Assembly (NCBI RefSeq): GCF_004010195.1
Contig: NC_057719.1
Location: 1,567,736 to 1,616,582, forward strand
Length of the DNA stretch: 48,847 nt
Direction of reading: 5' to 3'
Source: Chiloscyllium plagiosum
Lineage: Eukaryota
Below the pieces are notes generated by a model that saw only the letters and a program-made list of their open reading frames with translations, was not told the DNA's origin and did not search any database. Position numbers and translations under genes: made by a program. How positions within the stretch are numbered: position 1 is the stretch's first letter; the number at the start of each line of letters is the position of its first letter. Shown in pieces: positions 4,300 through 43,400 of this stretch.

Positions 4300-5520
4300 A
4301 ATTAGAGTCATAGAGTCATCTAACATGGAGACAAATCCTTTAGTCCAACAAGTCCATGCCAACCAGGTATCATAAACTGAACTAATCCCATGATTTAGAG
4401 ATGCCAGTGTTGGATTGGGGCGTACAAAGTTAAAAATCTCACAATACCAAGTCATAGTCCAACAGGCTTAATTAGAAGCACTAGCTTTTGGAGCGCTGCT
4501 CTTTCATCAGGTGGTTATGGAGTATAAGATTGTAAGACATCTTATACTCCACCACTACCTGATGAAGGAGTGCCGCTCTGAAAGCTAGTGCTTCCAGTTA
4601 AACATGTTAGACTATAACTTGGTGTTGTGTGATTTTTAACTTTGAACTAATCCCATTTGCCTGCATTTGGCCCATATCTCCCTCAACCTTTCCCATTCAT
4701 GTACCCATCCAGATGCCTTGTAAATGTTGTACTTGTACTTGCCTCCACCACTTCCTCTGGCAGCTCATTTGTATGTGCACCACCACCCGATGTGTGGAAG
4801 ACGTTGCCCCTCAGGTCTTTTTTAAGTCTTTCCCACTCACCTTAAACCTGTGCCCTCTAGTTTTGGATTCTCCTACTCCAGGGAAAAGACCTTGGCTATT
4901 CACCGTGTTTATGCCCTTCATGATTTTATAAAACTCTATAAGGTCACCGCTCAGCCTCCGACGCTCCAGGGAAAAACATTCCATCCTATCCAGTCTCTCC
5001 TTATAACTCAAACCTTCTGGTCCCAGCAACATCCTTGTAAATCTTTTTTGAACTCCTTCTAATTTAACAACTTCCTTTCTAAAGCAAGGTGATCAGAATT
5101 GTATGCAGTATTCCAAAAGTGGCCTTGTCAATGCCTTGTACAGCTGCAATATTTTGTCCCAGCTCCTTTACTGAGTATTCTGACCAATGAAGGCAAGCAT
5201 ACCAAATGCCACCTTCACCACCCTGTCTACCTGAGATGCCACTTTCCAGGAATATGAACCTCATCCCTAAGTCCGTCCCCAAGATCCTTCCATTAACTGT
5301 GCAAATTCTGCCTTGGTTTGTCATACCAAAATACAACATCTTGCATCTATCTAAATTGAATTAACACCATTTCTCAGTCCATTTGCCTATCTGATCAAGA
5401 TCTCATTGTACTGTTAGATAACCTTCTTCACAGTTCACCATACTACTAATTTCGGTGTCGTCCGCAAGCTTAGTAACCATACCTCCTATTTTTCCCATCT
5501 AAACCTTTGATATAAATGTC
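4300..5520 (-). mobile_element. CR1 LINE 3' fragment interrupted by a fold-back insertion at 4392-4643
   Basis: GLSYKERLDRMECFSLERRRLSGDLIEFYKIMKG motif and CTATGACT-type tail near 4303-4319. Confidence 0.88.
4392..4643. mobile_element. Fold-back PLE terminal-repeat element (family B) with hammerhead motifs on both strands
   Basis: Inverted arms ~4426-4530 and ~4539-4644. 13-bp TSD GAACTAATCCCAT at 4379-4391 and 4644-4656. Plus-strand motif CTGATGAAGGAGTGCCGCTCTGAAAGCTAGTG at 4559-4590. Confidence 0.85.
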
Positions 5521-5930
5521 GAACCACAACCAAACCTTAAGACCATAAGAGCAGGCATGGCATCATGGACTAGGCTAGACCACTCAAAGCATTCTTAAGC
5601 AGGCAGCCCAGACTGTAACTTTGCTATTTGTTTCAATAAGTGTATGGTGAAAATTACCCGGAGTAAATTAGCTAGGTTGACGACCAGGTTTTAAAACTGA
5701 CAAAAATTTACTCACAAAGTTACGGAATGAAACACAAAGAACAGTATATAGAATACCCACAGAATTCAGTCTCTCCAAACTGGATTTAATTGTGCTGTTC
5801 TGAAAATACACCACAGTCCCAATAAACAAACTCCCTTAAACATAGAGGAAAAATGAAACAAAGGTTTACAGGTCAAAGTTAGAAGGGCAGAAGCAGAGAG
5901 GGTCTAGCAACCTGTTTCCACACAGGGCAA

Positions 5931-6042
5931 AAGTGAGGACTGCAGATGCTGGAGATCAGAGTCTAGATTAGAGTGGTGCTGGAAAAGCACAGCAGGTCAG
6001 GCAGCATCCGAGGAGCAAGAAAATCGACGTTTTGGGCAAAAG
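5931..6042 (-). mobile_element. PLE terminal-repeat fragment (family A), truncated inside the hammerhead stem II
   Basis: Near-identical to 1262-1345 and 10682-10795; ends at GGGCAAAAG. Confidence 0.75.
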
Positions 6043-6360
6043 TCCAGACAGCCCACATTGTTGATTGTTGGAACAGCCCATCTGGTTCAGTAATGTCCTA
6101 GTGGATAGGTAGGCAGCTGTGACTTGCAATGTCAGCAGATCTCCTGGTAAGAACATCTACAAGCAGTAGCAGCAGCCTTCTGGTCTGAAGCTGTTGAACT
6201 GTTGAGGCTGGAAGGCAGTGAAATACTGTGTATGTGTAAAACATGAATAAATTCCTCTTCCCTTGCTTGTGCTCTCCTGTTTATATTTGTGGCACTGCAC
6301 AGGGAGATGCTGCCAGCAACCTGTTTCTGTGATAAGGTAAGGGTAGTTTTTCATGTAATA

Positions 6361-6456
6361 TGATGTGGAGGTATTGGTGTTGGCCCGGGGTGGACAATTG
6401 ACTAGGTTATAGTCCAACCTGTTTAGACTATAACCTGGTGTTGTGTGATTTTTAAC
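6361..6456. mobile_element. Collapsed fold-back PLE element (family B), no hammerhead left
   Basis: AGGTTATAGTC...GACTATAACCT inversion. Shares GGTGTTGTGTGATTTTTAACTTT with 4621-4643. Degenerate 12-bp TSD at 6349-6360 and 6457-6468. Confidence 0.7.
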
Positions 6457-6496
6457 TTTCACATAATAGTTAGCCTTGTTGACGGGGTCAGAAGGC

Positions 6497-6905
6497 CCTG
6501 GAGATCAGAGACAAGATTGAGTGGTGCTGGAAAAGCACAGCAGGTCAGGCAGCATCCGAGGAGCAGGGAAATCGACGATTCGGGCAAAAGCCCACAAGAA
6601 CCTAGGCGATGCTGGTACAATTGCAATATTTAAGAGGCATTTGGATGGGTATATGAATAAGAAGGGTTTGGAGGGATATGGGCCGGGTGCTGGCAGGTGG
6701 GACTAGATTGGGTTGGGATATCTGATCGGCATGGACGGGTTGGACCGAAGGGTCTGTTTCCATGCTGTACATCTCTATGACTGTATGACTCTATCAGGAA
6801 TGAGCCTGATGAGTCCATTCCTGATGAAGGGCTTTTGCCCGAAACGTTTTTCCTGCTCCTCAGATGCTGCCTGACCTGTTGCGCTTTTCCAGCACCACTC
6901 TGATC
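6497..6905. mobile_element. Fold-back PLE element (family A) interrupted by a + strand CR1 3' end (~6603-6793)
   Basis: Left arm 6497-6593 is inverted relative to the right arm 6817-6905. CTGATGAAGGGCTTTTGCCCGAAACGTT at 6821-6848. The CR1 tail CTCTATGACTGTATGACTCTAT lies between the arms. Confidence 0.8.
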
Positions 6906-8042
6906 ATAAACAAGACTGCCTTGTCTTTGTGTTATTTACCTGTGGTGCTGGTGATGGTGATAGCATTCATGAGGGAAAGTCTATTTGTGTAAACTCATCT
7001 GTGAAGAATGCTCCCTTGTCAAAGGGCTTTTTAAAAAGATGATGCTCTGGATAAGGGCATTGTTGACCAGGATGGCATTTGTTGGCAATCCCTGTGTATC
7101 CTTGAGAGGTTGGTGAGCTGCTTCAGTTCTTGAAGCTCACATTTATGTATGTTAGAGAGGGAGTTCCCAGATAGTGACTTGAAGATTTTGGAATGACAGA
7201 TTTTCAAGCCAAGGCACTATGTGATTAGTAAGTTATACTGTTCCCATGCATCCGCTGGCCTTAACCTGCGATCTTCATCACCAAAGTCTGGGAAAGTGTG
7301 GTGTGTTGCTGTAGTGCATCTTGTATTTGGTGCTACCTGCCACAATTGGAGGGAGTGGATGTTTGAGTTGTTAGGTGCACAACTTACGAGCACATAACAC
7401 TCTGTGAAACACCACCCCCATCTCAAAAATAACTTGAGTTGAGTACCTCCAGTAAGGCTGTGCTTCATATTCCAACAAGAGGATTTGTCCTTTAGAGCCT
7501 GTTTAAGTCACATTTTAGCTGATTGGTTTGCCTCAGCAACAGCTGTCGAGGACTAAATTAGATTGCCATTTGTTGCATTTTAACCTGGCCAGGCGGCATT
7601 GGTAAAATCTACCCAAATGCAGCTGGTGCTTGGTTTATTTTTGTCTTTCCAGCTGCTTGCTTTGATTGAGTTGCTTGCTTGCTTGGCCCATATCAGCACA
7701 ATTGTTTTCCTTTTTGGTGCTTTTTAATTGGCAACTGCTCAATATTGCATCAAAAAAGGATGCTGCTTTACAGTATTATACTTTGAAGAGATAATATTCC
7801 ATGTACCCTCTGACTTGTTTGACCAGATAATGTTTTTTTTTGTGTGCTGCTGGTTGAAAGATAACTATTGGCTAGGGTTCCCAAGGAGAACACTTTTCAG
7901 TAATGCCATGGGATATTTTACTTTCACATGAGAGATTTCCTCACCTCGAAAATTATGCTGTTTTCTCTCCACAAGTGCTCACTCTTTCGGGTTAAAGTAT
8001 GGTCAGAGGTAAGCAATAACCCTTGCTTTGGAAGTTGCTTGC

Positions 8043-8300
8043 AGCTCAGCAAATAGCATTTTCACATCCAAGTCAGAAGGTTGTAAATTTCATTCAAGAG
8101 ATTTCAAGAGTTCAAGAGATTTCAAAATTCAGTCTAGCACTCCAGGTCAGCACAGAGACAATACTGCGTGTGACAGAGTTACCTTTTCTCAGGTAGATGT
8201 AAGTGATTCAGTGGCACTGTTTCAAAGCAAAGTTCTCCCTGGTGTCTTGGTTAGTATTTGTCCCTAGTCATCACTAATCATTATCTAGTTATTACATCGT
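8043..8300 (+). mobile_element. Decayed DeuSINE/SacSINE-like SINE
   Basis: AGTCAGAAGGTTG head and TTCTCCCTGGTGTCTTGGTTAGTATTT core, similar to 16985-17310. Confidence 0.55.
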
Positions 8301-8599
8301 TATTATTTAGTTACTGTCATCCTACAGTCCATTGTATCTGTTCTAATACTAACCTCTTAACATGAAACATAATGTACTATAATTAAATTTCTTTATTCTT
8401 TCCTCTTTTTGTCATAATCTCCAGCGTTGAGGTTCAGTTTCTTCCAGCTCAATATTGGGAAGACCAGAGCCTGATTTTCTTCTATCTATGCTGTAAAGTC
8501 ACTATTGGTTTCACTCCCCTCTTTGGTCACTGAATTGGGATGAATCAGACCTGTCTGCAGTCTTTGTGCCAGATGTAACTCCAAGCTGAGTTGTCGTCT

Positions 8600-8730
8600 T
8601 AGATCACAAAGGGTCACTGGACCCAAAATGTTAAGTGTGCTTCCTCTCCACAGATGTTGCCTCACCTGCTGAGTTTTTCCAACAAGTTGAGTTTGTTTCG
8701 GATTTCCAGCATCTGCAGTCTTTGTTTTTT
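8600..8730 (+). mobile_element. Old PLE terminal-repeat relic with decayed hammerhead (related relics near 4205-4290, 36460-36577, 39628-39735, 45045-45220)
   Basis: AAGGGTCACTGGACCCAAAATGTTAA (stem II hairpin and decayed GAAACGTT), then the CCAGCATCTGCAGT end shared with family A. Confidence 0.5.
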
Positions 8731-8878
8731 TTTTAAACTTGTCCAGCTGCTTTCATTTTCACTTATTGTTGTCTGTATTCACCCTGATTTGACCCATATG
8801 CAACTAAAACTATTGCCCTGTCATTATCACAGCCAGAACGTACTACTACAGTGCTCTGAGGTCTGGCCTCCTATCCTT

Positions 8879-8964
8879 TAAGGGCAGCACGGTGGCACAG
8901 TGGTTAGCACTGCTGCCTCACAGCGCCAGAGACCCGGGTTCAATTCCTGCCTCAGGCGACTGAC
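8879..8964 (+). mobile_element. 3'-truncated HE1-type SINE (tRNA-like head only) flanked by a 41-bp direct repeat
   Basis: GGCAGCACGGTGGCACAGTGG (A box) and GGTTCAATTCC (B box). Identical repeat at 8838-8878 and 8965-9005. Confidence 0.88.
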
Positions 8965-9109
8965 ACGTACTACTACAGTGCTCTGAGGTCTGGCCTCCTA
9001 TCCTTCCTGCTTTGCAAATTTCTTTTTCTCCCAAATTCTGCTACGGGTGTCTTACTCCATTCACCTGTCCTTGCTATCCTGGGTATGGCCTGAAAGTCAC
9101 CAATGTCTG

Positions 9110-9770
9110 CGGTTTAATTAATTGCTCATCCTAGTGTTTAAATTCATACATGTTCTTTCCGTTTCCTAACTCCTTAGCTAAACTCCTTCAGCTTTACGCC
9201 CCTCCCCGAAATTCTCTGTTCTCAGCCTCTGACATCTTCTGTGTACCACCCAGCCCACATCCCAGCTTTGGTGGCTGTACCTTCAATCATCTCCGTCCCA
9301 CACTTGGAAATTCCCCTACCTCTCTCCTTAAAATTCTCCTTTAAAACCAAAAGTGATTATTTTGAATGTGACCATTTCTAAGGGTGGCATGGTGGCCTCA
9401 CAGCGCCAGGCACCCGGGTTTGATTTCTGCCTTTGGTAACTGTCTGTGTGGAGTTTGCACATTCTCATTGTGTCTGTGTGGGTTTCCTCCCACAGTTCGT
9501 AGATGTTCAGATTAGGTATGTTGGCCATGTTAAATTGCCCATCTTGTCCAGGGATGCTAGATCAATTTACCATGGTAAATGCAGGGTTAGAGGGATTAGA
9601 GAGGGGGCCAGGTGGGTCTGGGTGGAATGCTCTTCAGAGGGGTTGGTGTGGACTCGAAGGGCCAAATTATCTGCTTCTACACTGTAGCGTTCCTGTGGTC
9701 AAAGTATTCCTTTTGTCTCCTTATACAGACGTGAGACACCCACATGGTGTAAGTGCTGCTTAAATGCAAA
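9110..9770 (+). mobile_element. Decayed L2-like LINE 3' end split by a SINE
   Basis: Similar to the L2-like 3' region at 39870-40172 (TGGAA(A)TTCCC/TGGAATTACATCCC motif; ends in AAATGCAA/AAGTGCAAGT). Confidence 0.5.
9382..9686 (+). mobile_element. HE1-type SINE with internal deletions
   Basis: TGTGTGGAGTTTGCACATTCTC core and CR1-like tail. Confidence 0.85.
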
Positions 9771-10119
9771 TATCTTAAATGGCACATCTGATTTTCATGA
9801 TGTTTTAGACTTTATAAAACATATGACCCATTGGATAAGTTAGAAGAAATGTTTTCACACACTGTTGGAAAGAGTTGTTGGATTGAATGTCTGTCTTCTG
9901 TCGCACTAGAATTCTATTCCCCTCATAATAAATTTTGAGTAAGTGCCCCTTTGTTCCTAAACTGTTAATCAACTGAAGCAATTTTTAAATGTACGCCTTC
10001 TTCAAATCTTGGAATTTTTCGAACCCCTGTTTAAACCCCTATTGGCCTTCTTTGTTCCAGTGGCCTTTCCATATTATAGCTCCCATTTCTGGTATAATCA
10101 TAGTGAATCTTCACAGGGC

Positions 10120-11390
10120 CTTTTCATGGGAGGTCATGTCTGATCAACTTCACTGAATTTTTCAAAGAGAGGACCAGGTGTACAGGTGAAGGAATGCAAT
10201 TGATGTAGTCTACTTGCAGTTCAGCAAGGCTTTTGATGAGGTCTCGATTGGGAGACTGATAGCAAAGAAAAGAGCCCCTGGGGTTCAAGGAAATTTGGCT
10301 AATTCAATCTGTTATTGGCTGACTGGCAGGAAGCAGAGGATAATGGTTGGAGGGTGATGTTGTGATTGGAAGCCTGTTGAATGTAGGTGGGTTAATCAGT
10401 AAGTTCACAGATGATATGTAAATAGGTGAGTGGTAAATGGAGAGGAGGTTAGCCTTATTATAGGAGGGTATAGATGGGCTGGTCAGATGGGCTGATCCGT
10501 GGCAAATGGAATTCAATCCAGATAAATGTGAGGTGATAAAATTGGGTTAGACAACAAGGCAAGGAAATACAGGGTACATGATGAATGGTAGGACAGTGGA
10601 AAGTGTAGAGGATCAGAGGGACCTTGGTGCATGTCCATGTTCACTGGCCCCTTATGGTAGCAGGACAGATGGGTAAAGTGGAGAAAGTGAGGACTGCAGA
10701 TGCTGGAGATCAGAGCTGAAAATGTGTTGCTGGAAAAGCGCAGCAGGTCAGGCAGCATCCAAGGAACAGGAGAATCGACGTTTTGGGCATAAGCCCTTCT
10801 TCAGGAAGGGCTTCCTGAAGAAGGGTTTATGCCCGAAACGTCAATTCTCCTGTTCCTTGGATGCTGCCTGACCTGCTACGCTTTTCCAGCAACACATTTT
10901 CAGCTCAGATGGGTAAAGTGGTTAAGAAGCCATTCAGGACACTTGCCTTTATTAGATGAGGCATCGGGTTTAAGGGCAAGGAGGTAATGCTGGAACTGTA
11001 TTAGACCATAGCTCGAGTATTGTGTTCTGTAATCAATGTTTGTGTTGTATAAAATAGATAGGGTAAACAGGAAGAAATCTTTCTCCTTGATGGAAGGATC
11101 AATGAACAGGGGGCATCGCTTTAAGATAAGGGCAGGAGGTTTAGGGGAGATGTGAGGAAAAACGTTGTCACCCAGAGGGTGGTGGGAGCAACCCTCTGCC
11201 TTGACCAGCCTTACACTGCCTGTAAGGCTGGTCAAGGCAGAAACCTCAAAACATAAGTATTTAGATCTACATCTGCAATGTCAATCATGTAAGTGCAGGG
11301 GAATGGAATGAGAATAGTTAGAGGGTTACATCTGACTGGTGTGGACACAGTGGGCCAAAGAGCCTTTTTTTGTAGATCTCTACGACTCGG
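10120..11390 (+). mobile_element. Decayed CR1 LINE fragment interrupted at 10682-10905
   Basis: Remnant RT and C-terminal segments (AGCAAGGCTTTTGATGAGGT, GGCAAATGGAATTCAATCCAGATAAATGTGAGG) and a 3' tail. Confidence 0.8.
10682..10905. mobile_element. Fold-back PLE element (family A) with hammerhead motifs on both strands
   Basis: 95-bp inverted arms 10714-10808 and 10811-10905. Perfect 16-bp TSD CAGATGGGTAAAGTGG at 10666-10681 and 10906-10921. Confidence 0.92.
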
Positions 11391-12522: not shown

Positions 12523-12689
12523 AATCAATGATTATGTTCTGTGTATTACAGTTGCACAGATATCTACCACACTCCTGTCCCTAGAAAAAGTGGTCACTCT
12601 TAAGGTGTAAGCTCAAATATTGAATATTAGCAGGCTGTTTGATCATGTACGCCACATTCCTCACCCAAAGGCCATCTATACTGTAGTGG

Positions 12690-16209: not shown

Positions 16210-16299
<90 letters not shown>

Positions 16300-17639: not shown

Positions 17640-18410
17640 TCATAGAGTTATAGAGATGTACAGCATGGAAACAGACCCTTCGGTCCAAGCTGTCCATTGC
17701 TGACCAGATATCCCAACCCAATCTAGTCCCACCTGCCAGCACCCGGCCCATATCCCTCCAAACCCTTCCTATTGATATACCCATCCAAATGCCTCTTAAA
17801 TGTTGCAATTGTACCAGCCTCCACCACTTCCTCTGGCAGCTCATTCCATACACGTACCACCCTCTGTGTGAAAATGTTGCCCCTTAGGTCTCTTTTATAT
17901 CTTTCCCCTCTCGTCCTAAACCTATGCCCTCTAGTTCTGGACTCCCCGACCCCAGGGAGTCTATTTATTCTATCCATGCCCCTCATAATTTTGTAAACCT
18001 CTATAAGGTCACCCCTTAGCCTCCGACGCTCTAGGGAAACAGCCCCAGCCTGTTCAGCCTCTCCCTATAGCTCAAATCCTCCAACCCTGGCAACATCCTT
18101 GTAAATCTTTTCTGAACCCTTTCAAGTTTCACAACATCTTTCCAATAGGAAGGAGACCAGAATTGCACGCAATATTCCAAGTGGCCGAACCAATGTCCTG
18201 TACAGCCGCAACATGACCTCCCAACTCCTGTATTCTGGATCAGTGGTGCTGGAAGAGCACAGCAGTTCAGGCAGCATCCAACGAGCAGCGAAATCGCTGC
18301 TCATTGGATGCTGCCTGAACTGCTGTGCTCTTCCAGCATCACTGATCCAGAATCTGGTTTCCAGCATCTGCAGTCATTGTTTTTACCTCCCAACTCCTGT
18401 ACTCAATGGA
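17640..18410 (-). mobile_element. CR1 LINE 3' fragment interrupted at 18233-18384
   Basis: FTQRVVRVWNELPEEVVEAGTIATFKRHLD motif and 3' tail. Confidence 0.9.
18233..18384. mobile_element. Fold-back PLE element (family A variant) lacking the hammerhead
   Basis: 60-bp arms 18232-18291 and 18294-18353. Perfect 17-bp TSD ACCTCCCAACTCCTGTA at 18216-18232 and 18385-18401. Confidence 0.88.
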
Positions 18411-20214: not shown

Positions 20215-20636
20215 GATTTGGGTGTACAAAGTTAAAAATCACACAACACCAGGTTAACTCTGTTATCTCACTTTTTAGATTAGAATCAATCTAAACATCA
20301 GGTCATAGACAGAGAACACAGGGGGCTAACACCTTCAACATATTGTCTAGCTATCACCATTGTTAACCCGAGAATGCAACTTTTTAAAAAAGGGTTTTGT
20401 GATTTACACATGAAAGAAGTGAAACTATCACTGTATTCTAACAGATGAAAGGCTTAACAGTAAATCAATTTTTCAATGTATAATTTCAGTTACATCACAC
20501 TGCAAATTTTTGCTATAAATTCTGTGTTATGATCGAGCCCTCCACAATCACCTGATGAAGGAGCGTCACTCCGAAAGCTAGTGTGCTTCCAATTAAACCT
20601 GTTGGACTATAACCTGGTGTTGTGTGATTTTTAACT
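20215..20636 (+). mobile_element. PLE terminal repeat (family B) with a short inverted 5' copy
   Basis: ~20230-20256 is the inverse of ~20610-20636. 13-bp TSD CAG(C/T)AATAGTCAG at 20202-20214 and 20637-20649. Confidence 0.82.
20549..20583 (+). ncRNA. Minimal type I hammerhead ribozyme motif, apparently intact
   Basis: CAC-CUGAUGA-A-GGAG(CGUCA)CUCC-GAAA-GC-UA-GUG: stem I CAC/GUG, stem II GGAG/CUCC, palindromic AGCU stem III. Predicted cleavage after A20580. Activity not shown. Confidence 0.75.
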
Positions 20637-24161: not shown

Positions 24162-25194
24162 TCATGCATAGAAAATAAGTTCAGGAATCTGCCCACCTTG
24201 TACCCCTGTGCCATTAGTGCTGTCAGATGAACACTGGAACTGAAATGTCACTTTCCCACACTGCACTTCTGTCATTCCCTCTTGTCCAAAGTAGCTAAGC
24301 TCATTGCCATCCAGGATGGCACTGGCAGTGTAAAAGGTGTCCTGCTCCACCTGCACCGGGTGCTCGAACCAGACTGAGAAAGTGGTGCTAGAGCCATCTG
24401 ATATGAACTTAGTAAAGTTTTGAGCCAGGACCACCCCCTGCCGCTTCAGTTCGATCTTGACACTGTATTCGGCCTTGCCACAACTTGAGCCGTACAACCC
24501 GAGACCAGCGATAAAGATGCGCTTGTCCACCGCAAACTGGATGCTATCACAGCGGCCCCGGTACCTCCACTGGTTGCTGCGGTAAGCAGAGGACTGGAAG
24601 CGATGGCACCGTTGGGATGCTAGCCCCTTCCTTTGAGTGGTGGGGAATTCCAACTGCGGCTTCTTCAGCGCAGTGTACCACAAGAATATGTTGTGCGTCT
24701 GCTCCAGGGTCAAAAGGTCACATTGTGCAGCCCCATTGGCAAACTCCTCCAGCGTCATGGTGGGAATCCGAACGATGTAGAGAGCCTTGCCCAGCACGCT
24801 CCTCTTGTTGCGGGCAGTGGGAGGGAGCCCTTGTCTTTTGCACTCTGCCTCTGCCCAGCTTACAATGGCTTCAAACACCACCACCTCTTTCGTGTTGAGT
24901 GTTTCCCGTGACAGGATGATCTCCAAAGTCTGCAGATCGATCTCGCAAAAGCCCTCTGACCTGAGGGCAAGCTCTGCCTGGGCATCAATCACCTCCCAGC
25001 AGCGTTGGGTCAGCTCAGGCTCCTCAAAGAGCCTACTCTGGGACAGTAGGACACAAGCATTCTTTGCCTCCAAGCTGGTCTCCAGGAAGTTAACGCAAGC
25101 CTTTGCCAGATACGGGACAATGTACTTCTTGGCAGCGTACAGTGAAGCCAGCACTGTGTCTGCCTCCAAATCAATCTCATCACTGTACAAATAC
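24162..25194 (-). CDS. BTBD6: BTBD6 last coding exon (end of BTB, BACK and PHR domains, TGA stop)
   Basis: CTCTCTGCAG acceptor; YLYSDEIDLEADTV...GGQIPELIFYA*. Residues SRLFEEPEL, TLEEFANG, QSSAYR and FEHPVQVEQ match BTBD6 rather than BTBD3. Confidence 0.96.
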
Positions 25195-25473
25195 CTGCAG
25201 AGAGGGGAATAAAAACTCACTGAAAAGCTCACCACTTAAACCTCACGCAGGAAAAAAAAAGTTAAATTCCTGAGGAATTAACTTAAATCTAATGCACGCA
25301 AAAAAAAATTAAAGGCAGCTTGGAATTTCTTCATCTTAAAGCAAAGTAGTCGCAGACAGCATTTTAAAAGAAGTATCTCGGATTTTAAGTGAGTGATCAA
25401 ATAACATGCTTTAAATGGTTATTCATAGTCCCCACGCCGCTCCCCCAACACACACACACTCTATGTCCCTTAC

Positions 25474-28697: not shown

Positions 28698-28830
28698 GAG
28701 CTAAAAATGTGTTGCTGGAAAAGCGCAGCAGGTCAGGCAGCATCCAAGGAGCAGGAGAATCGACGTTTCGGGCATGAGCCCTTTTTCAGCTCTGATCTCC
28801 AGCAACTGCAGTCCTCACTTTCTTCTCCAT
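28698..28830. mobile_element. Asymmetric fold-back PLE element (family A) with a half hammerhead
   Basis: Minus arm keeps GGGCTCATGCCCGAAACGTCGA but lacks CUGANGA. Flanked by GAAATTAC at 28690-28697 and 28833-28840. Confidence 0.8.
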
Positions 28831-28936: not shown

Positions 28937-29345
28937 TTTGGTGACAGTGATCACAACTGCCTCACATTTAGCAAAGCCTTGGAAAGTGAAAGGAGCAATT
29001 ACTGAGGGAAGGTATTCAATTGAGGAAAAGGAAATTATGATGCTATAGGACAGGAGTTGGGAAGTATAGACTGGGAGTATTTGTTCCACAGAAAGGGCAC
29101 AGCAGACATGTGGAGACTATTTAAGGAGCAGTTATTGCAAGTGATGCACAAATTTGTTCCTCTGAGGCAGGTAAGAAGGGGTAAGATTAAGGAACCTTGG
29201 ATGACGAGAACAGAGGAACTGCTTGTCAAAAGGAAGGCGGCAACTTACGTAAGGTGGAGGAAGCAAGGACCAAGCACAGCTTTAGAGGATTACAGGCTTG
29301 CTAGAAAGGAGCTCAGAAGTGGACTGAGGAGAGCTAGGAGGAGGC
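28937..29345 (+). mobile_element. CR1 fragment duplicating ~29562-29970
   Basis: Direct comparison shows a collinear, highly similar sequence with substitutions mostly in the 5' half. Confidence 0.9.
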
Positions 29346-29531: not shown

Positions 29532-31400
29532 CAGGTGTCAGATCTCACGGTGGGAGAGCACTTTGGTGACAGTGATCACAACTGCCTCACATTTAGCATA
29601 GCCTTGGAAAGTGAAAGGAGCAATTACCGAGGGAAGATATTTAATTGGGGAAAAGGAAATTATGACGCTATCAGACAGGAGTTGGGAAATATAGACTGGG
29701 AGCAATTGTTCCACAGAAAGGGCATAGCAGACATGTGGAGACTTTTTAAGGAGCAGTTATTGTGAGTGATGCACAAATTTGTTCCTCTGAGGCAGGTAAG
29801 AAGGGGTAAGATTAAGGAACCTTGGATGACGAGAACAGAGGAACTGCTTGTCAAAAGGAAGGCGGCAGCTTACGTAAGGTGGAGGAAGCAAGGACCAAGC
29901 ACAGCTTTAGAGGATTACAGGCTTGCTAGAAAGGAGCTCAGAAGTGGACTGAGGAGAGCTAGGAGGAGGCATGAAAAAGGCTTGGCAAGAAGGATTAGGG
30001 AGAACCCAAAGGCATTTTACTCATACGTGAGGAATAAGAAATGATCAGGGAGAAAGTAGGGCCGATCAGGGATAGCAGAGGGAACTTGTGCGTGGAGTCT
30101 GAGCAGATAGGGGAAGCCCCAAATGAGGTTTTTGCTTTGGTTTTCACTCAGGAAAGGGAACTTGTTATAAATGAAAACTTAGAGGAGCTGGGATACAGTC
30201 TTGGTCAGATCAAGATTGATGAAGTTGATGTGCTAGAAAATGTGGAAAACATTATGATTGAGAAGTCCCCAGAGTCAGACCACATTTATCCTAGGCTGCT
30301 CCAGGTAGCGAGAAAGGAGGTTGCTAAGCCGCTGGCGAGGATATTTGCCTCCTCACTCTCCACGGGAGTCATATCGGAGGATTGGAAGGAGGCAAATGTT
30401 GTACCTCTTTTCAAGAAGGGGAATAGGGAAATCACTGGCAATTACAGACCAGTCAGTCTTAGTCTGTGGTCAGCAAAGTTTTGGAAAGAATTCTGAGGGA
30501 TAGGATTTATGACTATTTGGCAAAGCATAGTGTGATTAAAGGCAGTCAGCATGGCTTTGTGAGGGGCAGGTCATGCCTCATAAATCTTATTGAGTTCTTT
30601 GAGGAGGTGTCAAGACAGGTCGACGATGGTCGAGCAGTGGAAGGTCAAACTCGAATGCTGAACATAGGATTAAAGACAGGATTCTTGGCAGTGTGGAGGA
30701 ACAGAGGGATCTGGGTGTGCAAGTACATAGATCCCTCAAAGTTGCCACCCAAGTGGATAGGGTTGTTAAGAAAGCATATAGTGTTTTGGCTTTCATCAAC
30801 AGGGGTATCGAGTTTAAGAGCCGTGAGGTTTTGCTGCAGCTCTACAAGTCCCTCGTGAGGCCACACTTGGAATATTGTGTCCAGTTCTGGTCGCCTTACT
30901 ATCGGAAAGATACAGAGGCTTTGGAGAGGGTGCAAAGGAGGTTTACCAGGATGCTACCTGGACTGGAGGGCTTGCCTTATGAAGAGAGGTTGAATAAGCT
31001 TGGACTTTTCTCACTGGAGAGAAGGAGGAAGAGAAGAGACCTGATCGAGGTATGCAAGGTGATGAGAGGCATAGGTAGAGTCAATAGCCAGAGACTTTTC
31101 CCCAGGGCATGATTGACTGGTACGAGAAGTCATAGTTTGAAGATATTAGGAGGAAGGTATAAAGGAGACATCAGAGGTAGGTTCTTTACGCAGAGAGTTG
31201 TGAATGCATGGAATGCGTTACCAGCGGTGGTGGTGGAAGCAGTGTCATTGGGGACATTCAAGTGACTGCTGGACATGCAAATGGATAGCAGTGAGTTGAG
31301 GGGTGCATAGGTTGTTACTATATTTTACATTAGGATTAAATCTTGGCACAACATCGTGGGCCAAAGGCCTGTTCTGTGCTGTACTTTTCTATGTTCTAAA
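29532..31400 (+). mobile_element. CR1 LINE ORF2 with an internal RT deletion and intact 3' end
   Basis: GEHFGDSDHN, DWKEANVVPLFKKG, SQHGFVRGRSCL and LVRPHLEYCVQFWSP motifs; TTCTATGTTCTA tail. Confidence 0.93.
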
Positions 31401-32269: not shown

Positions 32270-33620
32270 CACCCTCCTGTTTAACCAATCTATTGGAATT
32301 CTTTGAGAAAGTAACGTGCTGTGGATAAGAGGGGACTGTAGAAGTGCTGTACTTAGATTTCCAGAAGGCACTTGATAACTTGGTGCAACAGTTGTTGAAA
32401 ATAAAAACTCATGCTTTAGGGGCTAATGTTTTAGTACAGACAGAACTCGCTGGCAGCAACCAGAGACATAAATAGTTCTTCTGGGTTAACAAATCACACT
32501 TGATGTACTTCAAGGATCTGTACCAGGGCCTCAACCTTTTATAATTTGCATAAATGTCTTGGATGAAAGGGGTGTCTAAAGGCATGGCTGCTCAATTTGC
32601 TGATGAAACAAAAACAGATAGGAAAGTAAGTTGTGAAGAGGTCACTAGGCTAGAAAGGGATATCAGAGTTGAGAGTGTGGAGCGGGAAAAGCACAGCAGG
32701 TCAGGCAGCATCCCAGGAGCAGGAGAATGGACGTTTCAGTATAATCGAAGTTTCGGGCATAAGCCCTTCATCAGGAATTGAATCAGCCCTGATGAAGGGC
32801 TTATGCCCGAAACTTTGACTCTCCTGCTCTTTGGATGCTGCCTGATCTGCTGTGCTTTTCCAGCACCACAATTTCAACTCTGATCTCCAGCATCTACAGT
32901 CCTCACGTTCTCCTAGAAAGGGATATCGATGGGTTGAGTGGGGAGGAGAAGATCTGACAAATGGAATATAATGTGGGAAAATGTGAAATTGTCCATTTTG
33001 GCAGGAAGAGTGAAAATGATGCATATTATCTAATGCTGATGTACTGCAGAGCTCTGAGATGCAGAGAGTTCTGCGTGTCCTTGTGCATGAATCATAATAA
33101 GTTAGTAGGTAGGTTCAATAAATACTCAAGGTTCAAAATGTTATCAGTTATTGAAAGGTGGATTTAATACAAGGTTAACGTATGCTTCAGTTACACCTTA
33201 AGCTTACAGCTTAAGCATTGGTGAGACTGCATCTGGACTACTATGTACAGTATTAGTCACTTTATTTAAGGAAGGTTATAAGTGCATTGAAACAGTTCAG
33301 AGGAGGTTTACCAAATTAATGTTTAGTAAAGACAGAGTGCCTTATGAGGAAAGGTTGGACAAGCTAAGCTTCATTGCTGGAGTTTAGAACAGTAAGAGGT
33401 GACTTCTTTGAAACAGGAGGTCTGGTGGAGGGGGGTGAGGGGGGCTTGACTAAGTAGATGTGAGAGGATGCTTCCTGTTGTGTGAGAATCTAGAACTCTT
33501 TTTAAGTAAGCAGTAGATAGATTCTTGACAAAGGGGTGAAGATTTATATAGAATAATCTGATCAGCTATGATCTTATTGAATGGCAAGCAGTCGCTTGTT
33601 CCTAACTTGAATGCTATGTA
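32270..33620 (+). mobile_element. Old CR1 RT fragment interrupted at 32665-32912
   Basis: SCLTNLLEFFEKVT, FADETK and MEYNVGKCEIVHFGRK remnants. Confidence 0.8.
32665..32912. mobile_element. Fold-back PLE element (family A) with hammerhead motifs on both strands
   Basis: Inverted arms centred near 32780. 15-bp TSD CTAGAAAGGGATATC at 32650-32664 and 32913-32927. CTGATGAAGGGCTTATGCCCGAAAC is present on both strands. Confidence 0.88.
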
Positions 33621-35480: not shown

Positions 35481-36809
35481 CTGAGTAATTGTTGGGGAAC
35501 ATAGTGTATTTTCAAACTGTTTTTGTATATGTTTTTCAAAAATTGGTACATTGACAGATGAGTTATTTTTCCCTTCCTGCTTAGATCCCTAGACCGTTAC
35601 AGTTGCTGAGTGTTCTATTGCCCAAGCATCAAGTTAGCAGCTATTGGCTGCCTGCGAGCTTGCAGTGCAGTGGTATCCTGTTCCTGTCTGTGTGCAGCAG
35701 GATATGCACACATTTGGGTGTTACTGAGTTAAATTCAGGAGTTGGAATCATCCCCGCACTCAGCACAGATAGGAACCAAATCCAAGATGTGTTCAGTCCT
35801 TCCGGCTGTCACTGAGCTGATTTCGTCTTTTTGTGCCTAGAAATATGTGTCAATAGCTACTAGTACTGAGATTTCATGTATTCCTCTGCATTGAAATTCC
35901 ATAATTCCAAGAATTTGTTCACGAATTATTGCAAAACTGACTAAAAGTGAAACAATTCGCTACGTTATGAATTTCTTTGTTACAGTTGTGTAGCACTTTG
36001 TGTCAGGAGAGGAGGAGGCAGTAATGTTGGTCTTTCCAACTCTATTAATTCCATACTTGTTCAAAGAGCAGCTTTGTATCCATCTCTTCTCAGTATCCTT
36101 CTTTGACGTCTAATCTCACTAACTAGATAAAAATGAGAAACCCTGCTTAGCTGTTTTTTAAAATGTATTCACTGGTTGTGGGCATTGCTGGCTGGGCCAG
36201 CATTTATTGCCCATTCCTTATTGTCCTTGAGAAGGTGGTGGTGATCTGTTGTCTTGAATTGCTGTAATCTTCAGATATGCTAATATAACTGTGCTGAGCA
36301 TGTATTTTTCACTTGCTTTAACCTGCGTCCCAATAGCCTACTATGTTTTAACTTGAAATAAGGGAAATACTGTTTTGATCACTGACCAGAAATTGAAGTG
36401 GGCCAGTCATGTTGTTATGATCCCAGCCAATATTATTGCTGGTCAACTAAAATCAAAGTACTGTGGATACTGGAAATCTGAAATGTGAACAGAAAATGCT
36501 GGAGAAACCTGACAGTTCTGACAACATCTGTGGAGAGAGAAACAGAGTTAACATTGGAGTCTAGTGTGATTCTTCAAAGTACCAAAGACTGGACTCGATC
36601 AATGGTATATTCTCTGCCTGGGATGAGTACTGCTCTAACAACAATAAAATCAGGATGAAAAGGAATTTATGGTGGTGATGTTCCCATTGTTCTCCTGCTC
36701 TTGTCCTTCTAGATGATATAGGTTGTGGGTTTGCAGATGCTAAAGAAAGCAGAGTAGACTTTGGAGAAGTAGAATTCATATCAGGGAATTCCTGTTTCAG
36801 TTCAGAGGA

Positions 36810-37200
36810 AATCCAGGCAGAGACTAGATAGGCTTGGATTGTTTTCTTCAGAATAGAGAAGACCGAAGGGGGGCATGATTGAGTCGTATAAGATTATGAG
36901 GGGTATGGACAAGGTGAATAAAGAGCAGGTGTTCCCCTTGGTTGAAGGGTCAGTCATGAGAGGGCATCCTTTTCGGGTAAGGGACAGGAGATTCAGAGGG
37001 ATTTGGAAAATAAAAAGCTTTTTTCACCCAGTGGGTGGTGGGAATCTGAATACACTGCCTTGGAAGGTAGTGGAGGATGGAAACCTCACAACCTTGAAAA
37101 AATATTTGGATGAGCAATTCAAATATCAGAACATTCAAGGATATGGGACAAACGCAGGAGATTGAGATTAGCGCACTTTTAAATGGTAGTTGTTGATGCA
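36810..37200 (+). mobile_element. CR1 3' fragment; its tail resumes at ~39038-39085
   Basis: MIESYKIMRGMDKV...LKKYLDE motif. Confidence 0.75.
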
Positions 37201-39037
37201 GAGTCATAGAGATGTACAGCACAGAAACAGACCTTTCAGTCCAACTCGTCCATGCCAACCAGATATCCCAATACAATCGAGTCCCACCTGCCAGCACCCG
37301 GCCCATATCCCTCCAAACCCTTCCCATTCTTATACCCATCCAGGTGCCCTTTAAATGTTGTAATTATACCAGCCTCCACCACTTCCTCTAGCAGCTCATT
37401 CCATACACGTACCACCCTCTAAGTGAAAAAGATGCCCCTTCGGACTCTTGTATATTTTTCCCCTCTTACTCTATAATATGCCCTCTAATCCTGGACTCCC
37501 CCACCACAGGGAAAAGACCTTGATTATTCACCCTCTCCATGCCCCTCATGATTTTATAAACCTCTATAAGGTCACCCCTCAGCCTCCAATGCGCCAGGGA
37601 AAACAGCCCCAGCCTGCTCAACCTCTCCCTATAGCTCAAATCCTCCAACCCTGGTGACATCCTTACAAATCTTTTCTGAACCCTTTCAAGTTTCACAACA
37701 TTCTTCCGACAGGAAGGAGACTAGAATTGCACGCAATATTCCAAAGTGGCCCTGTACAGCCGCAACATGACCTCCCAACTCCTGTACTCAATACTCTGAC
37801 CAATAAAGGAAAGCATATCAAACACCATCTTCACTATTCTATCTAATTGTGACTACTTTCACAGAGCTCTGAACCTGCACTCCAAGGTATCTTTGTTCAG
37901 CAACTCACCTAAGTGTATAAGTTCTGCTAAGATTGATTTCCCAAAATGCAGCACCACACATTTATCTGAATTAAACTCCATCTGCCATTTCTCAGCCCAT
38001 TGGCCCATCTGATCAAGATCCCGTTGTAAATCTGAGATAACCTTCTTTGCTGTCCACTACACCTCCAATTTTGGTGTCATCTGCAAACTTACTAACTGTA
38101 ACTCTTATGCTTACATCCAAATCATTTATATAAATGACAGAAAGCAGTGGACCCAGCACCGATCCTTTTGTTACTCCACTGGTCACAAGTCTCCAGTCTG
38201 CAAAGCAACCCTCCACCACCACCCTCTGTCTTCTACCTTTGAGCCAGTTCTGTATCCAAATGGCTAGTTTCTCTGTATTCCATGTGATCTAACTTTGCTA
38301 ACCATCTTCCATGGGGAACCTTGTCGAATACCTTACTGAAGTCCATATAGATCACATCTACTGCTCTGCCCTCATCAATCCTCTTTGTTACTTCATCAAA
38401 AAACTCAATCAAATTTGTGAGACATGATTTCCCACGCACAAAGCCATGTTGACTATCCCTAATCAGTCCTTGCCTTTCCAAATACATGTACATCCTGTAC
38501 CTCAGGATTCCCTGCAACAACTTGCCCACCACCAACATCAAGCTCATGGTCTATAGTTCCCTGGTTTGTCCTTACCACTCTTCTTAATCAGTGCACCACG
38601 TTAGCCAACCTCCAGTCTTCTGGCACCTCACCTGTGACTATTGATGATACAAATATCTCAGCAAGAGGCCCAGCAATCACTTCCCTAGCTTCCCACAGTT
38701 CGAGGATGCACCTGATCAGGTCCTGGGGATTTATCAACTTTTATGTGTTTCAAGACATCCAGCACTTCCTCCTCTATAATATGGACATTTTTCAAGATGT
38801 CACCATCTATTTCCCTACATTCTATATCTTCCATGTCCTTTTCCACAGTAAATGCTGATGCAAAATACTTGTTTAGTATCTTTCCCCATCTGCAGCTCCA
38901 CACAAGGCAGCCTTGCTGATCTTTGAGGGGCCCTATTCTCTCCCTAGTTTCCCTTTTGTCCTTAATGTATTTGTAAAAACCCTTTGGATTCTCCTTAACT
39001 CTATTTGCCAATGCTATCTCATGTCCCCTTTTTGCTC
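37200..39037 (-). mobile_element. CR1 LINE ORF2 fragment with 3' end
   Basis: [38 protein letters not shown] and SQHGFVRGKSCLTNLIEFF motifs. Confidence 0.93.
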
Positions 39038-39312
39038 GAGTCAATGGGTCTTTTCTGCGCTGTATGACTCCATGAATCTATGAATGTAGAAGACTCCTCA
39101 GGAGAGTGCGGTTTCACCCGTGGCCTAATATGAGAGGGAAATCTTATCTATTTGATTCCATCATATGTGTTTTCTCCATCTGCTACAGCACAAATCAGCA
39201 GAGATGCGTGACCGGGCTATCTTCTCATGAATGGATGTCGTAAAGAGTTAGAGAAGATATTTGAATACTAAGACGTCAGCAGAATCCTGCAGATGCTGGA
39301 AGTCTGAAATAA

Positions 39313-39627
39313 AGGCGGCACAGTGGCTAGCACTGCTGCCTCACAGCGGCAGAGACCCAGGTTCAATTCCCACCTCAGGCAACTGTCTGTGTGGAGTTTG
39401 CACATTCTCCCCGTGTCAGTGTGGGTTTCCTCCGGGTGCTCCGGTTTCCTCCCCCAGTCCAAAAATATACAGATTAGGTGAATTAGCCAAGCTAAATTGC
39501 CCGTAATGTTAGGTGAAGGGGTAAATGTAGAGGAATGGGTCTGGGTGGGTTGCTCTTTGGAGGGTCGGTATGGACTTGTTGGGCCGAAGGGACTGTTCCC
39601 ACACTGTAAGTAATCTAATCTAATCTA
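39313..39627 (+). mobile_element. HE1-type SINE with (TAATC)n tail, inserted in an older PLE-repeat relic
   Basis: B box GGTTCAATTCC, conserved core, TAATCTAATCTAATCTAA end. Confidence 0.9.
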
Positions 39628-39869
39628 AAAGTGTGAAATGCTGGAAAGGGTCCTCTCAACCTATAACATTAACTTTGTTTCTCTCTCCACAAATGTTGTC
39701 CGACTTGCTGAATATTTCCAACATTTTTTACTTTTATAACATATTTGAATTGTCACCCCTCCCTCTTCGTAAGTAAATCACTTTACAATGAATCATACTC
39801 AGCCTTTTGGTATCTCAACAGCTAAATTGGTGCCGTTGTTATGCAGAGTACACGTCAGTCGAGAAACCC

Positions 39870-40172
39870 TGCAAACCTTTGGCCTTCGCTAATTGTGGCT
39901 TCTTGGTGCAACCCTAATTTCATCACCCCACCATTGATGTCTTTGTCTTTAGTTGCCTGACCTCAAGCTCTGGAATTACATCCCTAAATCGTTCTGTGTG
40001 CCTATCTATATCTCTCCCCTTTTGAGACAATCCTTTAAATTTACCTATTTGGCCAAGGTTTTATTGACTTGTCCAAATACTTCTTTGTAGAACTGAGTTT
40101 TGTTTTCATGACTTTCCTGCGGAGGCACCTTGGGACGTCTTGCTGTGTTATAGGCACTATATAAGTGCAAGT
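39870..40172 (+). mobile_element. L2-like LINE 3' end
   Basis: CCACCATTG..AAGCTCTGGAATT.. region ending GGCACTATATAAGTGCAAGT. Confidence 0.55.
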
Positions 40173-41637
40173 TGATTGTTTCTGAGTATCTCTGCAGTTG
40201 GATGTAACAGAATTCATTGCTCATGGCTAATGACGTTGAAACAGTTTCTTTTAAGATTGGGTTCTGTCCAGGATATTAAGAATTAACTACATTGTACAGA
40301 TGACCACCTTCTCAAGGGTAACCAGGGACAGGCAATTAATGCTGGCCCACTCAGCAGCACCCACATCCCACAAGTGAATAAAACAAATTGTTGAATCAGG
40401 GTTAACTAGAATGAAAATTTGCACCTTCAAGCATTATTGATTCGGTTTCATTCCTACAGTTATCCAGTAGTTTTCATGGTCATTTTCGGTAGTTCTCATT
40501 CACAGATGCCGATATTTATTGGCTTTTTGTTTTATGGTAGATTATTTGCCTGGTTGGGGTTTGTATTGAGTTTTTTGGGTGAGAGTTTGAGAGTGGCATG
40601 TGCTGTCAGTGAAGAAGAGACATCAATTTAAAATAAGGTTTGGAAAAATTGTTTTAGTCAGATAATTTTGTTGAGCATGGAATGTTTGCCACAGGGAGTG
40701 ACTGAGAAAAAGACAATCACTGCTTTTAAGAGAAATTATGGAGAAGCAGAGGGAGATGCAGGCTGTACACACAGCATAGGGTCGTGGAATTAGTTTTGGA
40801 CTGCCCTAGCAAAGAGCTGGTGTATGCATTGCTGTGCTGTAGGCTCCTGTGGTTCCAGTTACTTGCCTGTTCCAGTCAGGATGGCGCTAATAGTGTCACA
40901 GTTGGCCTCAATCACTCCTGGGCCAGGGAAGTGAAAAATCAGCCAGGGTTCATGTCCTCGACTACTATCCAATAGCTTTTGCTGGACACAGAGCTCCTGA
41001 GGGAGGAAGAAAAAAAGCAGGGAATGTTTTTAGAAACTGCTTCTGTACCGTGGAAACCAGATACACAAAATGACATTCATGAAGTGAAACAGGCCTTTCA
41101 TTGAGGTAGGAGCTGAGCTCAAACTCCTGGGATTCTTTGCGTTGGAGCTGGAAACAGGAGTGGCTGTTTGAAAGGGAATATTATAGTGTCTGGTAGAGGG
41201 AGGAAGCTGATGTTGCTTTATGAAAGATTGGTTGTAGCTCATGGTAACTTGTCATTTGAAACTTGATGTTGCAGAGTTTGACCGAGCTCTAAAGATCATG
41301 TAAAATCCGTGTCATTTTGTACATCACATACTCTCATTTGTCTGATTGTGTGCTGTGCCTCCACTCTCATAAAGGATTAGACAAACAGAACTCTGTTCTT
41401 TCAGTCCGGGCACAGCAGAGCAGGCTGTCTGTATCCTAAGTCAGTTTCCATTGGAGACACATAGTTTAAGTAATTTTTTTAAGATGTGTCAGCTGGGACT
41501 TAGTAGCAACCTTGTTGCTAAATCAATGGGTTGTAAGTTCAAATTCCAGTCCAAGACTTGAGTGCAAATTCTAAGCTCACGCTGCAGTGTAGAGCTGAGG
41601 GAGTACTGCACTGTCAAAGGTACTTTCCTCCAGGTGA

Positions 41638-43400
41638 CATAGAGTCATAGAGTTATACAGCACAGAAGCAGACGTTTGAATCCAACATGTCCATGCTGAC
41701 CAGATATCCTAAATTAATCTAGTCCCATTTGCTAGCACCCGGTCCATATCCCTCCAAGCTCTTCCTATTCATGTACCCATCCAGATGCCTTTTTAAATGT
41801 TATGATTGTACCAGCCTCCACCACTTCCTCTGGCAGCCCACTCCATACACACACATCAACCTCTGTTTGAAAATGTTACCCCTTAGGTCCCCTCTCACCC
41901 TAAACCTATGCCCTCTAGTTTTGGACTCCCCTACCCTGAGAAAACAGCATGGCTATTCGCCTTATCCATGCCCCTCGTGATTTTATAAACTTCTATAAGG
42001 TCACCCGTCAGCCTCCCATGCTCCAGGGAAAATAGCCCCAGCCTATTCAGCTTCCAAGCACTCCAAACCTGGCAACATTCTTATAAATCTTTTCTGCTAT
42101 ATCCAGTTTCAAGTTTCACAACAATTTCCATATAACATTGAAAAGTGGCCGAAGCAATATGTTGTACAGCCGCAACCTAACATCCCAACTTCTATACTCA
42201 ATCAAGGCAAGCATACCTTCTTCAATACCTTGTCTACCTGCGCCTCCACCTTCAAGGAGCTATGCGCCTGCACCCCAAGGTCTTTTTGTTCAGCGATGTT
42301 CCCCAGGATCCTCCCGTAAGTATAAATCCTACCCTGAATTGACTTACCAAAATGCAGCACCTCACTTTATCTAAATCAAATTCTTATCTGCCACCCCACA
42401 GCCCACGGGCCCATCTGATCAACGTGACATTATACCCTGAGATAACATTCTTCACTGTCCATTATGCCAGCAATTTTGGTGTCATCTACAAACTTACTAA
42501 CCATTACTCCTATATTCAAATCCAAATCATTTATATAAATGACAAAAAGTAGTGGACCCAGTACTGATCCTTGCAGCATTCCATTGGTCACAGGCCTCCA
42601 GTCCAAAATACAACCCTCCACCACCACCCTCTATCTCTTTTGAGCCAATTTTATATCCAAATGGCTAGTTCTCTGTGGATTCCATGTGATCTAATCTTGC
42701 TAACCAGTCTTCAGTGCAGAACCTTGTTAAACACCTCACTGAAGTCCATATCAACAACATCCACGATTTTGCCTTCAATCTTTTGTCACTCCTTCAGAAA
42801 ACTCAATCAAATTAGTAAGACAAGATTTCCCACAAACAAAGCCATGTTGACTATATGGATGTAAGTTAGCTTGCTGAGCTGCAAGGTTTGTTTTCAGATA
42901 TTTCGTCCCCATGACTAGGTATCATCATCAGTGAAAGTATGATGATGTTACTTAGTCATTGTCAGGAAACGTCTGAAAACAAACCTTCCAGCTCAGCGAG
43001 CTAACTTAAATCCATAATATCAACTGAAGCTACAAATCTCAAAAATGGCTACCATATTGCCTATCCCTACTCAGTCCTTACCTTTCCAGATACATGTAAA
43101 TCCTGTCCCTCAGGATTCCCTCCAACAGCTTTCACCATTGATGTCAAGCTCACTGGTCTGTAGTTCCCTGGCATATCCTTACCAACTTTCTTTAAAAAAA
43201 AATGGCACCACATTAGCCACCCTCCAGTCTTCCAGCACCTCACCTATCGCTATTGATGATACAAATATCTCAGCAAGGGTCCCAGCAATCTCTTGCCCAG
43301 CTTCCTGTAAAGTTCCAGGTAACACCTAATCACATCCCAGGGATTTATCCAACTTTATGCATTTTAAGATGTCCATCCCCTCCTATGTAATATGGACATG
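41638..43400 (-). mobile_element. CR1 LINE ORF2 fragment with 3' end, interrupted at 42855-43050
   Basis: [18 protein letters not shown] and SKFVDDTK motifs; tail at 41638-41655. Confidence 0.9.
42855..43050. mobile_element. Fold-back PLE element of a third family (C) with hammerhead motifs on both strands
   Basis: Arms ~42854-42930 and ~42940-43016. Degenerate TSD CCATGTTGACTAT (42842-42854) / CCATATTGCCTAT (43052-43064). Minus strand CACTGATGATGATACCTAGTCATGGGGACGAAATATCTG. Confidence 0.82.

Follow-up and report, generated by a model that had tools for sequence, protein, structure and literature searches.

How did one shark gene come to hold nine short, non-coding insertions that each read as a sequence folded back on itself? 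The question is raised by a stretch of 48,847 nucleotides (nt) of Chiloscyllium plagiosum (contig NC_057719.1, positions 1,567,736 to 1,616,582 of the forward strand; the window). A preliminary description, made from the letters alone, had reported insertions of three families, here called A, B and C, built from inverted copies of a terminal repeat with a minimal hammerhead ribozyme motif, and had assigned them to Penelope-like elements (PLEs). The insertions, or stubs, are dead-on-arrival insertion products of several PLE families. They represent, in miniature and in extreme abundance, a kind of PLE insertion that is already known and no new class, and as genome features they are ordinary transposon debris. 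With a probability of roughly two in three, they arose when two short complementary DNAs (cDNAs), begun at the two nicks of the target, reached the likely capped 5' end of the element RNA and were then linked head to head.

Fold-back insertions and their parent elements

Inverted pairs were recovered at 9/9 sites when the window was compared with itself, with uneven quality but far above chance. The clean fold-backs are those at 4392, 10682, 18233, 32665 and 42855, in which the whole element matches itself at 76-95%; the other four of the nine fold-backs first described are either lopsided (20215, 28698 and 6361) or interrupted (6497). At 20215 an antisense arm of 43 nt faces a sense arm of 381 nt that includes 3' untranslated region (UTR), promoter region and hammerhead core. 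The element at 28698 consists of an antisense arm running from 0 to +91 without a tail, joined to a sense arm of tail only; positions of this kind are counted from the first C of the hammerhead core as zero. The intruder at 6497-6905 is a piece of about 180 nt from the 3' end of a long interspersed nuclear element (LINE), linked by BLAST to an RVT_1 frame.

Seven target-site duplications (TSDs) of 12-17 bp had been described, and six are clear (13-17 bp); those at 6361 and 28698 are weak, and a search at 6497-6905 found none. The overhang of about 28-35 nt of one arm over the other was confirmed in the form of one-sided tails of about 30-38 nt. The three families do have their design in common, but their common sequence is limited to the 11-nt start of the core. 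At 10682, position 10665 is followed directly by 10906 in contigs of two related organisms, with one copy of the TSD, so that the search for empty orthologous sites that had been suggested shows this element to be absent in two relatives. An assembly artefact at 10682 is rejected on account of the TSD, of 5% differences between the arms and of these empty sites; none of the same-species contigs listed bridged the element. The insertion at 20215-20636 seems to be shared with related organism C, which lacks the one at 10682 and whose contigs enter the 20215 element from both flanks.

Such insertions were then counted in a sample of 120 stretches of 10 kb that were picked by position and amount to 1.15 Mb without N (20 of them adjoin the window), and by exact sequence patterns across the 3.56-Gb genome. 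The sample contains 72 fold-backs and 217 unpaired arms, or about 60 fold-backs per Mb, and the density in the window is only about twice as high. A tail is present on exactly one arm in 65/72 fold-backs, and a TSD of at least 10 bp flanks 43/72, compared with 4/300 random intervals. These TSDs are mostly 11-17 bp long, and because the automated search missed those at 32665 and 42855, the figure of 43 is an undercount. Unpaired arms, unlike fold-backs, seldom have a TSD (at least 10 bp in 11/170 for family A), and some may be halves of larger insertions. Genome-wide, the exact core patterns number 16,308 for A, 7,089 for B and 296 for C, with 0 for the reversed controls.

The origin of the stubs from PLE integration, with loss of any open reading frame (ORF), was upheld by longer copies that carry GIY-YIG endonuclease and reverse transcriptase (RT) coding sequence upstream of the repeats; all three families are the ends of such elements. 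On the strand of the core, the GIY-YIG motif lies about 465 nt upstream in A, 340-380 nt in C, and 541 and 1066 nt at two loci of B. RT motifs are found 1.0-1.4 kb upstream of the core in A and C, followed by GIY-YIG. Pfam matched RVT_1 or GIY-YIG in 4/10 PLE fragments, with only one of the four above the cut-off, and no full-length copy of A or B was found. Beyond the full tails, the 283 tailed arms collected for A, B and C have no sequence in common, and therefore they include no copy of these families with an upstream pseudo-long terminal repeat (pLTR).

Clade likeness was judged from motifs and sequence identity. Family A has a C-x4-C-x2-C motif before the endonuclease, like the linker of the Neptune clade described in the available portion of PMC8557442; the linker of family B was not recovered. 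Families C and D, the latter a sister family, resemble Poseidon; the ORF of D lacks a linker Zn finger and opens at hammerhead stem II, and C is 45-72% identical to D. Family D has at least 142 strong RT matches genome-wide, and two near full-length tandem elements, L236 (G000:C5:14199880-14203656) and L246. In L236 a hammerhead stands at both ends and the ORF is in frame from an AUG inside the upstream hammerhead. A partial tandem of the pLTR overlaps the ORF start in both D elements, and tandem ends of C are present in L138. From the tandem structure of D it follows that the transcription unit begins in what has been called the "terminal repeat".

Arm ends and the route of formation

The 5' ends of the arms gather at an inner hot spot in each family. 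They fall between -10 and -1 in 72/264 arms of A, 27/68 of B and 5/29 of C. Genome-wide, family B fold-backs whose 13-mers are separated by no more than 30 nt turn at the core in 2,123 cases, at +44 in 262 and near -63 in 16, which describes a peak and not a decay, and 5/15 joints listed from contigs of relatives land on B -8. The hot spot tracks a position about 30 nt past a TATA-like box, not the ribozyme: it lies at -4 in A, at -8 in B (TATAAA at -38), at -18 in C (box near -48) and at -23 in D. For D the end point was predicted beforehand from a box at -53, and about 30/50 junctions listed were found by eye to have both arms there, with a pattern that allowed 20-50 nt. The D junctions at -23 are blunt joins, 2-nt overlaps or joins with an extra G (4 loci).

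Fold-back points had been said to differ between copies. They do so in detail, but they also cluster tightly, at one place per family. The 65 one-tail fold-backs of the sample have 64 distinct pairs of 5' ends, and by eye 43/50 B and 46/50 A junctions are distinct among the matches listed; one B junction and one A junction recur in 4/50 each, and one D junction in about 21/50. The proposed check for identical junctions thus indicates that each fold-back arose in a separate insertion event.

RT that copies a cap characteristically leaves an additional G at a fixed 5' end. At position -9 of family B, the template C is present in 20,162 copies, G in 3,013, and A or T in 1,325, while G makes up 5/100 of the non-template bases listed for an interior C used as control. 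At position -5 of family A, G (10,585) exceeds A (6,035), for which composition would predict 42:58. When copies bearing the extra G were inspected (15 of A and 12 of B), all 27 ceased to be element at that point.

The outer ends are fixed as well, at two places per family. Solo arms of family A end about equally at either outer site (91 vs 79), which indicates that both are real start sites. Among the 65 one-tail fold-backs, the tail-less arm extends further 5' in 27 and the tail arm in 14. At D loci fetched by junction from 50 listed, the two arms are of the same subtype in 19/19, three of them with private variants in common.

In the route that we favor, the endonuclease would nick both strands 12-17 nt apart, and RT would begin within the RNA at two sites, one per nick, roughly at +75 to +90 and +112 to +125 from the core; their spacing of about 35 nt would account for the one-sided tail. 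Given start sites only 90-135 nt from the RNA 5' end, RT would run off the cap, adding a C opposite it. The cDNA ends may then be joined blunt, with a short filler between them or via microhomology of 1-4 nt, before the second strands are filled in. The available text of PMC11167929 reports in vitro cutting and extension of both strands by the Poseidon protein of a lizard, with two internal RT starts that define the tail.

Several observations weigh against run-off from a capped end. Many arms end within the repeat, before the hot spot is reached, and the box about 30 nt upstream in family A is only a weak TTTATCT. The G excess in A is only 1.75-fold, and a subfamily variant can mimic such an excess, as at the +34 control in A; in C the 40 G and 60 A of 100 listed are not separable from composition, though joins that overlap by GC inflate the A. 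Asymmetry of the arms could also stem from later deletions at the center of the palindrome. A native 10-bp palindrome lies on the D hot spot, which a snap-back would fit equally. The longer copies of family B have GIY-YIG only, at two loci, with no RT traced. Finally, the RNA data, one poly(A) single-cell run from one sample with the same species label, contain no place where many molecules begin; cap and start were not directly observed.

That palindrome belongs to an account in which a short palindrome lets a single cDNA, or an antisense RNA, fold over and serve as template for its own copy; PMC3846280, in the portion available, ascribes the inversion to self-priming on an antisense template. 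Many junctions of A, B and C also have short palindromes, and both the near-identity of about 21/50 D junctions listed (by eye) and the private variants common to the two arms in D suit a snap-back. A copy of the tail arm cannot exceed the tail arm without later deletion, however, and so the 27/65 fold-backs whose tail-less arm outruns the tail arm at its 5' end by more than 10 nt argue against it, as do the junctions where both arms have an extra G with filler between them and the use of either outer site as a start by solo arms. We regard snap-back as unlikely, but as deserving some weight. A stall or release of RT at the hammerhead structure or a bound protein, with the G as ordinary non-templated addition and no cap involved, is improbable. 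The hot spots of A and B do lie at most 8 nt from the core, and a simple test in C is without G excess, but across families the distance to the core varies (4, 8, 18 and 23 nt) while that to the TATA-like box stays near 30, interior B positions lack the G bias, and a structure should halt RT on its 3' side and not past it.

Two further readings have very little in their favor. One, raised for sharks in the preliminary description, is a non-autonomous class similar to miniature inverted-repeat transposable elements (MITEs), amplified from fold-back masters with ribozymes kept active. Very high copy number and some recurring junctions speak for it. The ends are unequal, though, the TSDs variable and the end pairs and listed junctions mostly distinct, the recurring D junction is shared by three sequence subtypes and matches what blunt joining of two ends at -23 would give, and the minis lack an upstream promoter and often have broken or absent cores; the proposed class is therefore not upheld. 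The other, just as doubtful, is that arms were copied from hammerhead-cleaved RNA, in which case the stubs would record ribozyme activity in vivo. One arm at 18233 ends at the predicted cut, and a non-template purine just before +28 is present in 774 copies, against 557 at a +35 control. With 16,620 copies at the -4 point, the 774 amount to about 5% and exceed the control only 1.4-fold, and the C that was tested lies in a CpG; in vitro, moreover, cleavage is unnecessary (PMC11167929, available text). Copying from RNA cut by the hammerhead can therefore have contributed little at most, and run-off of two cDNAs from a capped 5' end remains the reading that we prefer.

Hammerhead motifs, a poly(A) site and other features of the window

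Hammerhead cores (CUGANGA...GAAA) are present on the + strand at 4559, 6821, 10815, 20552 and 32789 and on the - strand at 32774, with another at 42931 (-) that has a poor stem II; an intact core is missing at 6361, 18233 and 28698. No Rfam hammerhead model matched in the elements of the window, where only weak miRNA-hairpin hits were returned. A minimal type I hammerhead combines its core with a paired stem II, a short stem I and a palindromic 4-mer in the stem III position; a descriptor for the motif gave 104 matches in the 1.15-Mb sample and 0 in each of 3 shuffles, with the palindromic 4-mer in 85/104 (ACGT 63, AGCT 22). The check on stem covariation was only partly borne out: stem II differs in sequence among families yet pairs, but there is little covariation within families.

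It had been proposed that the fold-backs put a ribozyme on each strand. Cores on both strands occur only at 32665, and there the stem III palindrome is lost. A minimal hammerhead needs a second copy and folds as a dimer, and a single one did not cleave (PMC4209133, available text); since an antisense arm presumably cannot supply the dimer partner, the proposal is not supported. In four symmetric elements with a core, freeing the core from the hairpin is predicted to cost 17-27 kcal/mol, as against 1.3 kcal/mol in the lopsided 20215 element. The ribozymes of the fold-backs are likely inert, and the hammerhead would be a passenger: it lies no more than 50 nt from the RNA 5' end, and the fold-back hairpin is predicted to bury it. 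The abundant intronic hairpins are candidate substrates for RNA editing.

In the RNA run, A-tails were found at family B +57 (369 reads) and +60 (454 reads), 12-15 nt past ATTAAA. Both sites precede a GU-rich stretch, have no genomic A-run, and are covered by reads from several copies; they lie upstream of both outer ends (+84 and +122). The tailed RNAs could come either from the PLE promoter or from host transcripts that use the site. The references of A, C and D have no such hexamer at the corresponding place, and no poly(A) loose end of family A was seen among the rows listed. Reads over the 10682 element are mostly from other copies. The family B repeats thus carry a used poly(A) site, and their tens of thousands of copies may give host transcripts 3' ends.

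Features of the window (coordinates of the stretch; TSD, target-site duplication)
Feature	Position	Strand or tailed arm	TSD	Details
Family B fold-back	4392..4642	tail on left (antisense) arm	14 bp at 4378 and 4643	intact core confined to +
Family B fold-back, short, lopsided	6361..6459		weak	about 100 nt; without hammerhead core
Family A fold-back	6497..6905			split by LINE 3' fragment (6608-6789); core on + at 6821
Family A fold-back, young	10682..10905	left arm tailed	16 bp	
BRF1-like coding exon (host gene)	16222..16294	+		matches BRF1 peptide words
Family A fold-back	18233..18384	right arm tailed	about 17 bp	both arms without hammerhead core
Family B lopsided insertion	20215..20636		13 bp, 1 mismatch	422 bp
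TATAAA box	20514..20519	+		30 nt upstream of family B 5'-end hot spot
Predicted transcription start, family B	20544	+		-8 to core; arms ending there with non-template G
Family B minimal type I hammerhead motif	20552..20583	+		stem II 5 bp; palindromic AGCU replacing stem III
Poly(A) signal ATTAAA (20592-20597) and addition sites	20592..20612	+		addition after 20609 and 20612; family-level, not this copy's
Family A lopsided fold-back	28698..28826		weak	arms 92 and 41 nt; core mutated
Family A fold-back	32665..32912		15 bp	two cores; stem III palindrome lost
Family C (Poseidon-type) fold-back, decayed	42855..43051		13 bp, 2 mismatches (by eye)	

The assignment of the host gene to BRF1 was substantiated by TFIIB-repeat exons on the + strand that flank the window, by the exon in the table, which we take to be BRF1 from peptide words, and by a nested antisense exon. 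The latter (24162-25235, -) has a 357-amino acid frame with BTB, BACK and PHR domains and is a BTBD6-like last exon, antisense within BRF1; the two genes are nested in human as well. Other family A sequences in the window include a longer arm with 3' UTR at 1267-1898 (-), which has an internal duplication near 1398-1545 and a deletion and is without a fold-back partner, and a solo arm with full tail at 5926-6045 (-), for which no TSD was found and whose 5' end (+8) is the same as that of the arm 6498-6593, 450 nt off. Older relatives of the family A end, about 75% diverged with the same tail motif, are located at 8610-8730, 36449-36555 and 39645-39723. A perfect 21-bp inverted repeat with a 5-nt loop (11195-11241) has no relation to the PLE families. 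The window also contains a direct duplication of 409 bp at 96% (28937-29345 and 29562-29970) and an exact 117-bp tandem duplication (48532-48763) that could be an assembly artefact.

Replication and comparison with known systems

In retroelements with long terminal repeats (LTRs), minus-strand strong-stop DNA is a short first cDNA that begins inside the RNA, close to its capped 5' end; in L1 twin priming, two primers give rise to an inversion. PLEs might replicate via a target-primed strong-stop step with an obligatory LTR-like jump from the cap to the 3' repeat, a tentative extension whose odds we put somewhat below even. The pLTR would then be the equivalent of U3-R-U5, with TATA upstream, the cap 4-23 nt before the hammerhead, the poly(A) site within the repeat (family B, +57/+60) and the RT start sites beyond it. 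Unit RNA would have start sites only near its 5' end, such that a long copy would need a jump to the 3' R, and a second jump would rebuild the promoter and leave a partial tandem. The hammerheads, one per R, might form a dimer and in this way keep the two ends close to each other. The fold-back minis would be failures in which both cDNAs were joined before the jump, and by extrapolation the genome would hold about 200,000 fossil strong-stop pairs. The case for an obligatory jump is built on the family B poly(A) site, and it competes with read-through multi-copy RNA and with the circular RNA proposed in PMC4209133, as far as its available text goes.

If the stubs are run-off products of a capped 5' end, the genome alone maps the transcription start and both RT start sites of each family, and one model covers pLTRs, tails, inversions and partial tandems through a retrovirus-like first copying step. 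PLE replication and the origin of these four features are stated to be unresolved in the available portions of PMC8557442, PMC3846280 and PMC11167929. With the end statistics, PLE replication becomes a question that can be put to direct test, for example in the published in vitro Poseidon system.

The likeness to LTR strong-stop DNA lies in a start near the capped 5' end and, in family B, in the U3-R-U5-like order. The primer here would be nicked target DNA and not a tRNA, the start sites of both arms are fixed, and there is neither LTR nor integrase. Retrozymes are head-to-tail, non-coding hammerhead monomers with circular RNA (see PMC7229834), whereas the stubs are head to head and tied to PLE ORFs. 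In the available text of PMC4209133, minimal PLE hammerheads likewise have a short stem I, one nt before stem II and a palindromic 4-mer replacing stem III, and Schistosoma has opposite-strand pairs of them 100-700 bp apart; sharks are not named there, and the hammerheads described here are known from sequence alone. For D. virilis Penelope an internal promoter is reported (PMC2377424, in the part available), in contrast to the upstream TATA found here.

The Anolis Poseidon element PAc is similar in that its ORF starts at hammerhead stem II and both strands are cut and extended, with RT starting internally at two sites that lie about 110 nt past the ORF start (PMC11167929). In its available text, that study assumes a multi-copy mRNA and does not describe fold-backs, cap run-off or a poly(A) site upstream of where RT begins. 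The insertions of endonuclease-bearing (EN+) PLEs are the nearest relatives in design (PMC8557442; PMC3846280; available portions), with a head-to-head inverted, 5'-truncated pLTR, a one-sided tail of 30-40 bp, a TSD, TATA- or initiator (Inr)-like motifs in the pLTR, and a pLTR that overlaps the ORF start. Minimal hammerheads, an inverted copy and a short tail, which the preliminary description took as established for PLEs, are indeed in print, together with the TSD, the TATA/Inr motifs and the opposite-strand hammerhead pairs. Nothing was found in the PLE literature searched on a cap G, a strong-stop step or a pLTR poly(A) site; supplements, Repbase/Dfam, Arkhipova 2006 and Evgen'ev and Arkhipova 2005, which lay outside that search, may bear on this. 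The insertions described here differ from those of EN+ PLEs in having arms of about 100 nt, no ORF, a density of about 60 per Mb, and a defined end point with an extra G. What the present analysis adds is the clustering of arm 5' ends about 30 nt past a TATA-like box, the non-template G, and the poly(A) site within the B repeat.

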